From: a virus
Taxonomy: Duplodnaviria; Caudoviricetes
Length of the DNA stretch: 64,000 nt
Virus record (IMG/VR): IMGVR_UViG_3300033076_001341
Span: 63,940 to 127,939 of that record
Strand: one strand, 5' to 3'
The notes under the pieces are model-generated. The model was not told the DNA's origin, made no database searches, and saw only the letters and a program-made list of their open reading frames with translations. Made by a program: the position numbers and the translations under genes. Shown piece by piece: positions 41,893 to 51,097 of this stretch (positions are counted from its first letter, which is position 1; every line of letters begins with the position of its first letter).

Positions 41893-42441
41893 TTAGAAAG
41901 GTAAAACGGAGTGCTCATCCTTCAGGAGAGCTAAAGGATTACTCATACCCATGTTTACAGCAATGTCTGCAAGATCTTGCGCATGCTTTATCATGTAAGG
42001 AGTGTGTGCTTTAGAGTTACTTACATACTGGCGTTTGGCTTCAATAGCAAACATGGGTCTTTGAATACGTATGTACAGATGATGCCCCGCTGAGATTGCG
42101 TATCTATGTTCGTAATCATACACGATCTGTTCTACGGGCACCTTAAACACACAGATCTTGATGTCTTTGTACATGCAAGCAGTGCGTTGGATCTTGTTAC
42201 CAAACACATCTGTAGAGACATCACTCAATGAACTCAGGTCTGTTGCTAACTCTACACCTGGCAGTCTTTCTAAGAACTTTGTGATAGACAGGTAATTAGG
42301 AATAAGAACGTCCACGTCATTGGGTTCTCTTTTAATCAGACCCCGATAATACAGCATCAGACTACCACCTATAATCGCAAGTGGCATCTGCAGGGTAAGT
42401 TTTTTGACTAATTCGTCGAGATGTAGTTTATTTAAAGACAT
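41893..42441 (-). CDS. nucleotidyltransferase-like protein (Pol-beta superfamily motif)
   Basis: IIGGSLML...REPNDVDV (GS + DxD); C-terminal KHAQDL. Confidence 0.6.
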   Translation of the reverse strand: MSLNKLHLDELVKKLTLQMPLAIIGGSLMLYYRGLIKREPNDVDVLIPNYLSITKFLERLPGVELATDLSSLSDVSTDVFGNKIQRTACMYKDIKICVFKVPVEQIVYDYEHRYAISAGHHLYIRIQRPMFAIEAKRQYVSNSKAHTPYMIKHAQDLADIAVNMGMSNPLALLKDEHSVLPF

Positions 42442-42470
42442 GATGTTTCGTTATTAGGTACATGGTAATC

Positions 42471-42704
42471 CCCTCTGCACTCAAGTTGTAATCCTCGGCT
42501 ATACCGTAGACATATATTCTAGCTTCAGTCTGCAGTTTTAAAACGCTGTCTCTAGATTACAACTTGCTCACCCTTGGGAGACTGATTAAAGACTGCTATC
42601 TGCCGCAGTATGCTTACACTTAATCAGTGTGGTTTCACATCTCAAGGTTATCTACATTGGAGAGCCCTGAGAAGTCTTCATATCCACGTGAGAATGGTGC
42701 ATTA
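42471..42704 (-). ncRNA. twister ribozyme (P1-type) with a 107-nt insertion
   Basis: UAA-UGCA-CC ... P4 CUCAC/GUGAG, L4 UCCCAAGG, P5 AAGUUGUAAUC/GAUUACAACUU, UGCA-GA-GGG; T1 CCC:GGG, T2 CC:GG; P1 weak. Confidence 0.7.
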
Positions 42705-42760: not shown

Positions 42761-42866
42761 TAGTCAGGACAGGATTCGAACCTGTAATCATGGATATGGT
42801 ATCTACGGTGGATTACCCGCCTCACCTCACCACTTATCCTTGCGTCTACCATTCCGCCACCTGACT
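42761..42866 (-). ncRNA. 106-nt tRNA-Leu-like RNA with an extended, anticodon-less arm
   Basis: AGTCAGG/CCTGACT-A; Leu-type D arm TGGCGGAATGGTAGACGC; ACAGG-TTCGAAT-CCTGT; GGATA..TGGT/ACCATATCC long arm. Confidence 0.75.
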
Positions 42867-43285: not shown

Positions 43286-43738
43286 TTAGATGTACATGGA
43301 AACGATCTTGTTAACGAACTCTTCAGAGGTAGTAGAACATTCTGCGAAAGCAGCTTCAACAAGGATGTTGTTAGCAATGTCTTTAGTACAAGGTACACTT
43401 TGACATCTGGCAGATACACTTATATTTGATGGATCATACCTATAACGAGTGGTGCTTGCACTTGTGTAAACATTCTCTTTCTCGTACTTTTTGTCGAATT
43501 GCTCGCGCTTTTTCTCAAACTTATCGATCAAGTCGTTAAGTTCATTACGTTTGGCGCTGATGTCTTCAATCAGTTTAGTTAACTCTTTGAAGTCTTTAGA
43601 TTCTTCAAGTTTGCTAGTCTTCGCTTTTCTTGCTTCGTCATTGGATTTTTCAATCCTCGCTTGTACCTGCCCTGCAAGTGCTTCAGCGAGCGTTTTGGTG
43701 ATTTTAATACCTGTGGTTTTCATGGATGTATTTTTCAT
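43286..43738 (-). CDS. hypothetical coiled-coil protein
   Basis: Start at ATG 43738 or 43723. Confidence 0.65.
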   Translation of the reverse strand: MKNTSMKTTGIKITKTLAEALAGQVQARIEKSNDEARKAKTSKLEESKDFKELTKLIEDISAKRNELNDLIDKFEKKREQFDKKYEKENVYTSASTTRYRYDPSNISVSARCQSVPCTKDIANNILVEAAFAECSTTSEEFVNKIVSMYI

Positions 43739-43795
43739 ACCTGCATTACTGCAACGCACTAGACCTAAATGCTGTTTATACTCGTCTAGTCGAGT
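43736..43795 (-). ncRNA. pistol ribozyme
   Basis: ACUCG-ACUAGA-CGAGU-AUAAA-CAG-CAU-UUAGG-UCUAGU-GCG-UUGCA-GUAA-UGCAG-GU-AUG: P1, 6-bp pseudoknot, AUAAA linker, GCG, P3, GU cleavage site, P2 CAU/AUG. Confidence 0.85.
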
Positions 43796-43809: not shown

Positions 43810-44137
43810 GGTGCATTAAAGTAATTCAATTGTAATACAAGGCTTGTTGATCTATCTTGTATTTCGACACATTCATTTCCCCATAGTGTCTGATGAGGTA
43901 ATGGAGAATTATTACTTGCTGAGTAAACCCAGCATCGTCCATTTTTTTTATCTAGCACCTTTATCCTGTCTTTGCATTAGCTACTGCAAATGAGAATTGG
44001 GTTACAATTGTTTACTACACTCTGCATTCAGTTGTACTATGTAGGATTTGAACCTAACTGTTTCCACTACTTACATGCTTTACAGCATTGAGCCTAGTAC
44101 AACTGCCTACCCTTGTGAAGTAGGTTGTGATGCATTA
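43810..44137 (-). ncRNA. twister ribozyme with two possible cleavage strands (P1-type, or permuted with a long P1)
   Basis: P4 CCUAC/GUAGG, L4 UCACAAGG, P5 AGUUGUACUA/UAGUACAACU, UGCA-GA-GUG; UAAUGCAUC at 44137 and UAAUGCACC at 43818; AGUAA/UUACU and CAAUUGUAA/UUACAAUUG stems. Confidence 0.75.
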
Positions 44138-50721: not shown

Positions 50722-51097
50722 GGGGATGAAATGGATTCGACAGCATTGTCGGGGACATGTACACATGCAGAGAGATGATACTGTTCTCTATAATCACGTA
50801 TTACACTAATTAAACGGCAACGTAGAATTATCTGAAATGACTTTTGAAGACGCTATCGCATTCGTTGGTGAATACGAAATGGCAGCCTAAGTCGCGGGGA
50901 GTCATCCCTGGGAACAGAAAATGACACACGAGTATCACGGTTCCTGGACCTAAACCAGGTGGTGGAATCTGACTTCGGTCAACCCTACGGTGCAGACCAT
51001 ATCGTTGACATCAACGAAATGATCAGTACTAAGCATGTAAGATGTACATATCTGCTGCTTTGACTGGACGGCGGTTCGATACCGCCCATCTCCACCA
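50722..51097 (+). ncRNA. ssrA: tmRNA; predicted tag (A)GNVELSEMTFEDAIAFVGEYEMAA* at 50816-50890
   Basis: 5' GGGGATG...GGATTCGAC; 3' GGCGG-TTCGATA-CCGCC-CATCTCC-ACCA; G3:U70 pair; TAAAC before the resume codon; tag ends AA-stop. Confidence 0.92.

Follow-up and report, generated by a model that had tools for sequence, protein, structure and literature searches.

The window analysed here, a stretch of 64,000 nucleotides from a 128-kb IMG/VR virus record, carries on its minus strand an element that an initial sequence-only reading had described as a twister ribozyme with two additional hairpins next to loop L4, placed shortly before a small gene. This raises the question of whether such an RNA still belongs to the twister class, whether it cleaves its own transcript, and what the additional domain is for. 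The portal protein encoded in this genome has distant relatives among the portal proteins of crAss-like phages and, on that basis, the source is likely to be an uncultured crAss-like phage. Twisters are among the fastest small self-cleaving ribozymes and, to our knowledge, their natural role is still unknown. It has been described that stems P1, P2 and P4 are essential in this class while P0, P3 and P5 are optional, that the fold contains two pseudoknots (T1 and T2), and that a conserved A adjoining P1 directly follows the scissile bond, with a conserved guanine after P2; L4 contains an A.A pair and a Hoogsteen pair of U with A (PMC5408937).

Every element of the twister core was found at the place noted in the sequence-only reading, and all of its coordinates proved right, including those of the 107-nt insert (Table 1). 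Counterparts of the named residues of Osa-1-4 (A7, G13, C14, U24.A29, C25-27, A28.A46, G30, C31, A8.G45 and G48; PMC5113685, PMC7026644) are all present with the exception of G13/C31, swapped here to C/G, and their presence assigns the element to the twister class at the level of the fold. Covariation in P2 and P4 and the T1 pseudoknot were found, as were the scissile-bond A, the AA...GA of L1 and the U-CCC-AA-G of L4. The order P1, U/A-A, P2, T2, linker, P4, L4, P4', P5, P2', GA, GGG, P1' is that of the reference class, the type P1 twister (Roth et al. 2014, reviewed in PMC5408937; RF03160, RF03154, RF02684), and the likeness extends to a 3-bp T1 with a compensatory change, four Watson-Crick pairs of P2 beside the AA...GA loop, a U and an A in L4 placed for the Hoogsteen pair, and P5 as an optional arm. 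P1 was agreed to be weak, with at most 2 bp in the window copy. A descriptor of the form AA-P2-NC-linker-P4...C[CA]CAAGG-P4'...P2'-GA-G[GU]G, which demands perfect pairing in P2, P4 and T1, matched two sites in the window, namely the element itself (twister-1) and an insert-less copy at 44137 (twister-2), against a mean of 0.01 matches per dinucleotide shuffle and any match at all in 2 of 200 shuffles. Folding of the whole element as a single sequence recovered H1, H2 and P5 and mis-paired the core, as expected for a pseudoknot.

Table 1. Coordinates of the twister-1 element, its parts and neighbouring features (positions in the window).
Feature	Position	Strand	Description
Whole twister element	42704-42471	minus	234 nt; all core elements in order and spacing
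Candidate scissile bond	U42704/A42703	minus	Position from twister architecture (PMC5113685, PMC7026644, PMC5408937)
Conserved AA	A42703, A42702	minus	Counterparts of Osa-1-4 A7, A8; invariant in 42/42 insert-bearing homologues
P2 5' strand UGCAC	42701-42697	minus	Partner 42480-42476
T2 5' nucleotide C	42696	minus	C14 equivalent by analogy with C14-G30 of Osa-1-4; partner G42573
Linker AUU after C42696	between C42696 and P4	minus	Read from sequence
P4 5' strand CUCAC	42692-42688	minus	Partner 42571-42567
H1	42687-42629	minus	4-bp base GUGG/CCAC, internal loop, helix, variable tip
H1 internal loop	AUAUGAAG 42683-42676 opposite GAAA 42636-42633	minus	8x4 nt, near-invariant
H1 helix past loop	within 42687-42629	minus	AC-U-UCUCA.../...UGAGA-U-GU, conserved U.U mismatch
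H2	42628-42581	minus	Base ACUGAUUAA/UUAAUCAGU, variable tip
L4 strand C-U-CCC-AA-GG	42580-42572	minus	U24 equivalent, T1 CCC 42578-42576, AA, T2 G's 42573-42572
P4 3' strand GUGAG	42571-42567	minus	Pairs with P4 5' strand
P5 optional arm	42566-42482	minus	12-bp base CAAGUUGUAAUC/GAUUACAACUUG, 42566-42555 with 42493-42482; variable interior
A, then P2 3' strand GUGCA	42480-42476	minus	Pairs with UGCAC
G42475 and A42474	42475-42474	minus	Equivalents of conserved guanine G45 and of A46
T1 3' strand GGG	42473-42471	minus	Pairs with CCC 42578-42576
Downstream ORF, 182 aa	41893-42441	minus	ATG at 42441, 29 nt past last ribozyme base
tRNA-shaped RNA	42761-42866	minus	Rfam tRNA, 44.4 bits, E = 1.7e-7; upstream of twister-1
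Pistol ribozyme	43735-43795	minus	RF02679, 57.7 bits against gathering score 34.5, full length; about 1 kb upstream of twister-1
Twister-2, insert-less	44137-44020	minus	R1 model 85.9 bits; P4 CCUAC/GUAGG, T1 CAC:GUG, fifth P2 pair U-A
tmRNA, phage-encoded	50722-51097	plus	Rfam 93 bits; ARAGORN tag peptide GNVELSEMTFEDAIAFVGEYEMAA; tRNA-Thr and tRNA-Met genes adjoin

Relatives of the element were collected from IMG/VR with two patterns. The first, of 16 nt and covering L4 and P4', retrieved 67 loci, nearly all of them true homologues, of which 43 are distinct full-length elements with the two-hairpin insert and 42 were aligned (A1); distinct insert-bearing homologues in IMG/VR number 42-47. 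With the second pattern, at least 120 relatives lacking the insert were obtained, of which 68 were aligned (A2), while a wider parse, from which AT-rich false positives had been filtered out, holds at least 116. This phage-only branch of twister is large, with at least 160 members parsed and more in existence. In genome_contigs, five short MAG contigs matched as well; these are probably mis-binned phage DNA and no host was therefore inferred from them. On the other hand, no match came from blastn searches of 50,697 GenBank phage records with the region and with the family cores, nor is there a copy in Leptolyngbya phage Lbo-JY46, the cultured phage with the nearest portal protein; a 13-bit match in the latter to a covariance model of the type described below did not read as twister-like.

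The proposed pairings are well supported by these alignments. In A1, 93.0% of the cells are paired, compared with 83.8% in column shuffles (reached by 0 of 500) and 32-45% when the partner strand is slid, and in A2 the corresponding values are 91.2% and 81.2% (0 of 500); RNAalifold, applied independently to A1, returned P2, P4, the H1 base, H2 and P5. P2 is paired in 98.8-100% of the cells with the compensatory forms UGUA/UACA, UGCG/CGCA and UGUG/CACA. P4 occurs in insert-bearing members as CUCAC/GUGAG, CUCAU/AUGAG, CUAUC/GAUAG, CCUAC/GUAGG and UCAAU/AUUGA, and in insert-less members all five of its pairs covary with 99.1% paired. P1, P2, P5 and T1 likewise covary in the insert-less set. For T1, the wider parse (at least 116 insert-less members) contains CCC:GGG in 98 and CAC:GUG in 17, with 99% paired, and in A2 the middle pair is CG in 61 members, AU in 6 and unpaired in 1. 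P5, a known optional twister stem (PMC5408937), is paired in 95.8% of the cells in A1, where 6 of its pairs covary; in A2, 9 do so. All five columns of P1 covary at family level, yet only 58-63% of its cells are paired at a fixed register, and the mean contiguous P1 is 2.8 bp in members with the arm and 3.3 bp in those without. The GA after P2 is present in 114 of the 116 insert-less members parsed, in 46 of 47 insert-bearing ones and in 160 of the 163 parsed members overall. The L4 strand does not vary in any of the 42 insert-bearing members, but this part was fixed by the search pattern itself; insert-less members have UU-CCC/CAC-AAGG. Covariation in P2, P4 and T1, for which a homologue alignment had been proposed as a check in the sequence-only reading, is thus present among more than 150 homologues.

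One pairing needs to be revised in the light of these data. Since C42697 covaries with G42480, located 5' of the 3' UGCA, P2 comprises five pairs rather than four; among the 116 insert-less members parsed, 98 have C-G and 15 have U-A as this fifth pair, and RNAalifold predicts all five. A five-pair P2 leaves a single clear T2 pair, C42696:G42573, and the T2 pairing CC:GG proposed at the outset therefore stands for one of its two pairs, while the other C (42697) goes to the fifth P2 pair by covariation. The equivalent of C42696:G42573 is C:G in 68 of 68 insert-less and in 41 of 42 insert-bearing members, the remaining one having U:G, and being nearly unvarying it yields no covariation evidence. 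Such a fifth covarying pair is a feature of the phage family and not of the published twister; for Osa-1-4, a similar pairing has been put forward as the reason why the A40C variant loses activity (RA = 0.09; PMC5113685). In the phage family, T2 is either cut down to one pair or alternates with the fifth pair of P2.

Further departures from the described twister concern T2, which is CC:GG or UC:GG instead of the conserved GC:GC, the end of L4, which is GG and not GC, an extra nucleotide before the U24 equivalent, and the closing pair of P4, which varies instead of being an invariant G-C. No match to the Rfam models of twister-P1, -P3 and -P5 (RF03160, RF03154, RF02684) was obtained at the gathering score or at E <= 10 in the window or in the whole genome, and the models likewise failed to match in seven homologous loci, in an isolated 131-nt stretch or in an 81-nt minimal member alone; the insert-less window copy also lacks an Rfam twister match at E <= 10. 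In view of the Rfam misses, the departures in T2, L4 and P4 and the fifth P2 pair, we place the family in the twister class as a divergent branch from phages and not as a standard member, an assignment supported by the sequences at the level of fold and family, for which catalysis is predicted. As the Rfam models miss this entire phage branch, surveys based on Rfam undercount ribozymes in crAss-like phages. A covariance model built from the insert-less alignment (R1) and used to scan genomes detected two copies in the source genome and between one and four in each of five other phage records, where arrays of 2-4 copies span 0.3-1.6 kb.

The twister-sister ribozyme (RF02681) in its four-way form resembles the element in having a four-way junction, in being a phage-associated self-cleaver (putative here) and in its twister-like loop nucleotides, but no match to RF02681 was found at the gathering score or at E <= 10. 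Unlike in twister-sister, the CCC of L4 pairs here with a 3' GGG that runs into P1, a covarying pseudoknot in keeping with twister, and the predicted cut falls at a UA in the P1/P2 junction. The fold of twister-sister differs from the double pseudoknot of twister. The four-way junction of the hairpin ribozyme and the loop-loop contacts of hammerheads can also be compared, by analogy only, as conserved non-catalytic additions to a minimal core.

With the core assigned in this way, the additional domain can be considered. The insert (42687-42581, 107 nt) consists exactly of hairpins H1 and H2 and lies between the 5' strand of P4 and L4, whereas in described twisters the optional stems are only P0, P3 and P5. 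That it is made of precisely two hairpins was borne out by RNAfold, which returned both from the insert alone, and by the homologues; the folding energy of the insert by itself is unremarkable (z = -1.8), so the support for the hairpins is comparative. The insert takes the place of a single extra U which insert-less members have between P4 and the U24 equivalent. As noted earlier, twister-2 has one extra U at this position (CCUAC-U-U-CAC-AAGG from 44118 on). More generally, the insert-less subfamily (44137-44020 in the window; L084:1200-1298) shares with twister-1 the genomic setting and a near-identical core (UAAUGCACC..., ...CCCAAGG..., CAGUUGUAA...UUACAACUGAGUGCAGAGGG) but has UU where twister-1 has H1, H2 and CU. 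In the literature we found no description of a twister in crAss-like phages, of an insertion in L4 or of a peripheral stabiliser of twister, and this conserved extra domain thus sits where no natural twister insertion was found described.

Among the insert-bearing members, covariation extends to the basal helices of H1 and H2. The H1 base is GUGG/CCAC in 28 members, GUAG/CUAC in 16 and GCAG/CUGC in one, and it is followed by an asymmetric internal loop with the near-invariant family consensus AUAURAAG / GAAA, whose strands appear as AUAUAAAGAC in 34 of 47 and AUAUGAAGAC in 5 of 47 on one side and as AGAUGUGAAA in 35 of 47. Beyond the loop, the family has a helix (ACUUCUUA/UAAGAUGU) interrupted by a U.U mismatch, and then a tip of free form. 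In four homologues H1 is shortened to 13-20 nt, with the base and the A/U-rich ends of the loop kept. H2 has across the family a conserved base of 8-10 bp, (A)CUGAUUAA/UUAAUCAG(U), and a free tip; its nine base pairs are 95% paired with the compensatory forms AAUGAUUA/UAAUCAUU, ACUGACAA/UUGUCAGU and AAUAACUA/UAGUUAUU. A scan with the 5' motif of H1 gave many chance matches in AT-rich coding DNA, whereas all matches that also had the 3' strand of H1 lay directly after a twister 5' strand, so that the H1 domain was found only together with a twister-type element. The internal loop was inspected as a K-turn, a loop E or an 11-nt tetraloop receptor, and was rejected as such on account of its strand lengths and GA positions. 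Regarding other variation in the arms, the H2 tips in loci L023 and L054 are T-arm-like hairpins (GGGUUCAAUUCCC) which recall the tRNA-like RNAs of these phages, and L047:212-517 has a GC-rich UUCG hairpin (CCAGAGUC-UUCG-GACUCUGG) between P5 and the 3' strand of P2, another permissive site.

Given that no linker nucleotides separate the helices, with only C-U ahead of CCC, P4, H1, H2 and L4/T1 form a perfect four-way junction, and the arm, which makes this junction, resembles a fixed structural unit. Judged by strand connectivity, the P4/T1 corner into which it is set may join the P2-T2-P4 stack to the T1-P1 stack, near the entry of the substrate strand.

Taken together, the stretch 42704-42471 is probably a type-P1 twister-class ribozyme of a phage subfamily that cuts at U42704/A42703 and carries the arm as a peripheral stabiliser. 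The cut site predicted in the sequence-only reading agrees with the published architecture, and we infer from it that the RNA most likely cuts itself at this bond. The double-pseudoknot fold would bring A42703, 3' of the scissile bond, beside the conserved guanine G42475, and the cut would leave a 2',3'-cyclic phosphate on the upstream and a 5'-OH on the downstream product. In the arm, P4 would keep stacking on the L4 core and H1 would stack on H2, so placed that the A-rich internal loop of H1 might dock against an adjacent helix and, as a fixed peripheral element, stabilise the active fold. If the upstream tRNA-shaped RNA is co-transcribed, cleavage would detach it, with its trailer, from the mRNA, and the 234-nt ribozyme would stay folded at the 5' end of the downstream gene's mRNA, as a leader beginning with a 5'-OH. 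The family as a whole could punctuate transcripts in this manner, with its one to four copies per record, often in tight arrays and usually tens of nucleotides before an ORF; the distance to the next downstream ORF has a median of about 80 nt and is commonly 30-50 nt. Two further ideas about the arm and P1 were discarded: compensation by the arm for a weak P1, for which the difference between the means given above is too small to argue from, and replacement of P1 by an upstream hairpin (42722-42707 in the window), which is no commoner in members with a weak P1 than at a control position.

It had been suggested that the insert could make the ribozyme allosteric. In such a reading, H1/H2 would bind a phage or host protein or a small molecule, which would select the stacking of the arms and switch the core on or off. 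The H1 loop and its adjoining helix with the U.U mismatch are indeed conserved far beyond the needs of pairing, catalytically degenerate copies retain the H1/H2 domain, and the arms of a perfect four-way junction can stack in either of two ways. The insert also lies at the P4/T1 corner beside the active site, according to the published strand connectivity (PMC5408937). Nevertheless, no alternative pairing between insert and core was seen on inspection, H1 changing from GUGG to GUAG while P4 remains the same, and no known aptamer or protein-site family was matched in Rfam; moreover, H1 can be reduced to the short hairpin of the four homologues mentioned above. The downstream genes are unrelated, with 68 clusters among 90 proteins, by which a link of the arm to one gene family was rejected, and one and the same AbiEii-like gene family follows arm-bearing (window, L002) as well as arm-less (L156) copies. 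A conserved domain is present, no pairing that competes with the core was seen, and we consider an allosteric ribozyme unlikely, although it deserves some weight. Its more explicit version, a sensor in which a phage or host factor binding the H1 loop would set the junction and make a natural allosteric twister that times the cutting of phage transcripts during infection, appears slightly less likely again. The arm may have a function that outlasts the loss of catalysis, as hinted by the degenerate copies that keep it.

Degenerate copies are carried by the two closest relatives. At the same locus, L002 has an A instead of the conserved guanine, while in L001 both UAA and CC are missing and T1 is mismatched, with CAC facing AGG. 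L001:2690-2985 and L003:2590-2880 have a common variant 5' strand in spite of differing arm tips, and H1 is canonical in L003 and not in L001; L025, L040 and L044 have another common strand without UAA and CC. Copies with variant strands in these five loci keep P4, the H2 base, L4 and P5, and a form that is probably non-cleaving, its variant strand being common to loci with unrelated arm tips, seems to persist. As some copies are probably inactive and yet retain these parts, there is room for a role independent of cleavage. The window copy itself might accordingly be regarded as a non-cleaving or decaying scaffold derived from twister, with a structural role such as a 5' leader that protects the mRNA, a reading to which its short P1 and the failure of the Rfam models also point. 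We consider this improbable for the window copy, in which every conserved core base is kept; about 90% of the insert-bearing homologues found via L4 alone have canonical 5' and 3' strands, and P1 has been reported to be dispensable for twister catalysis (PMC5113685). Very improbable, finally, is a neutral origin of the insert, as expansion, filler or parasitic sequence at a permissive loop. The tips of H1 (13-200 nt), H2 (35-105 nt) and P5 do vary freely in length and sequence, but the 30-40 nt next to the junction are near-invariant or covarying in more than 40 elements with unrelated tips, the distribution of insert sizes is bimodal, with one class at 2 nt (UU), the other from 65 nt upward and nothing between, and divergent tips and flanks speak against recent copying from one source. 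The reading as a cleaving ribozyme with the arm as a peripheral stabiliser is preferred. The variant 5' strands themselves read CUUUCUG[CU]AUCUCAC or CUCUUUGCAC[AG]UUCUC[AC]C (L001, L003, L025, L040, L044).

In the genomic surroundings, on the minus strand, twister-2 is followed by the pistol ribozyme, two ORFs, the tRNA-shaped RNA, twister-1 and the AbiEii-like ORF, the start codon of which lies at the distance of about 30 nt noted earlier. This 182-aa ORF, located among tRNA-like RNAs and ribozymes, had been labelled a nucleotidyltransferase, a label backed by predicted-structure look-alikes and by nothing in Pfam, NCBIfam or PHROGs, where the ORF had no match: ESM Atlas look-alikes include PF08843 AbiEii and PF10706 (TM 0.58-0.71), and the model also resembles AbiGii-type and aminoglycoside-2''-type nucleotidyltransferases, so that it probably encodes an AbiEii-like nucleotidyltransferase. 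The tRNA-shaped RNA has about 40 nt in place of a 7-nt anticodon loop and was not called by ARAGORN; look-alikes in L001, L003 and L096 have an identical acceptor end, CCUGACUA. Both forms of the ribozyme, arm-bearing and insert-less, occur in the same phage records and arrays, and such matched natural pairs that differ in the arm, some of them within a single phage, provide material on the peripheral domain of a double-pseudoknot ribozyme. The idea that these ribozymes punctuate transcripts can be tested directly, given how regularly they are placed just ahead of small genes and next to tRNA-like RNAs.

Tandem arrays were seen at L024:9868-10283, L013:12883-13150, L045:7083-8633 and L116:638-979, in some of which no more than 2 nt separate the GAGGG of one copy from the UAAUGCACC of the copy after it; if both copies of an array were to cut, unit-length RNAs with 5'-OH and cyclic-phosphate ends would result. 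In the window, a T-arm-like hairpin (UAGGUUCAAAUCCUA) lies within the P5 arm of twister-2, and a lone look-alike of the twister 5' strand (UUUAAUGCACCACA) occurs at 43815-43826 on the minus strand, directly upstream of pistol and with no L4/P4 partner nearby. An 11-codon upstream ORF (42428-42463, minus strand; AUG UAC CUA AUA ACG AAA CAU CAU GUC UUU AAA UAA) runs into the beginning of the 182-aa gene, and the leader ACC(A/U)UGUACCUAAUAACGAAA is conserved in L001 and L002.
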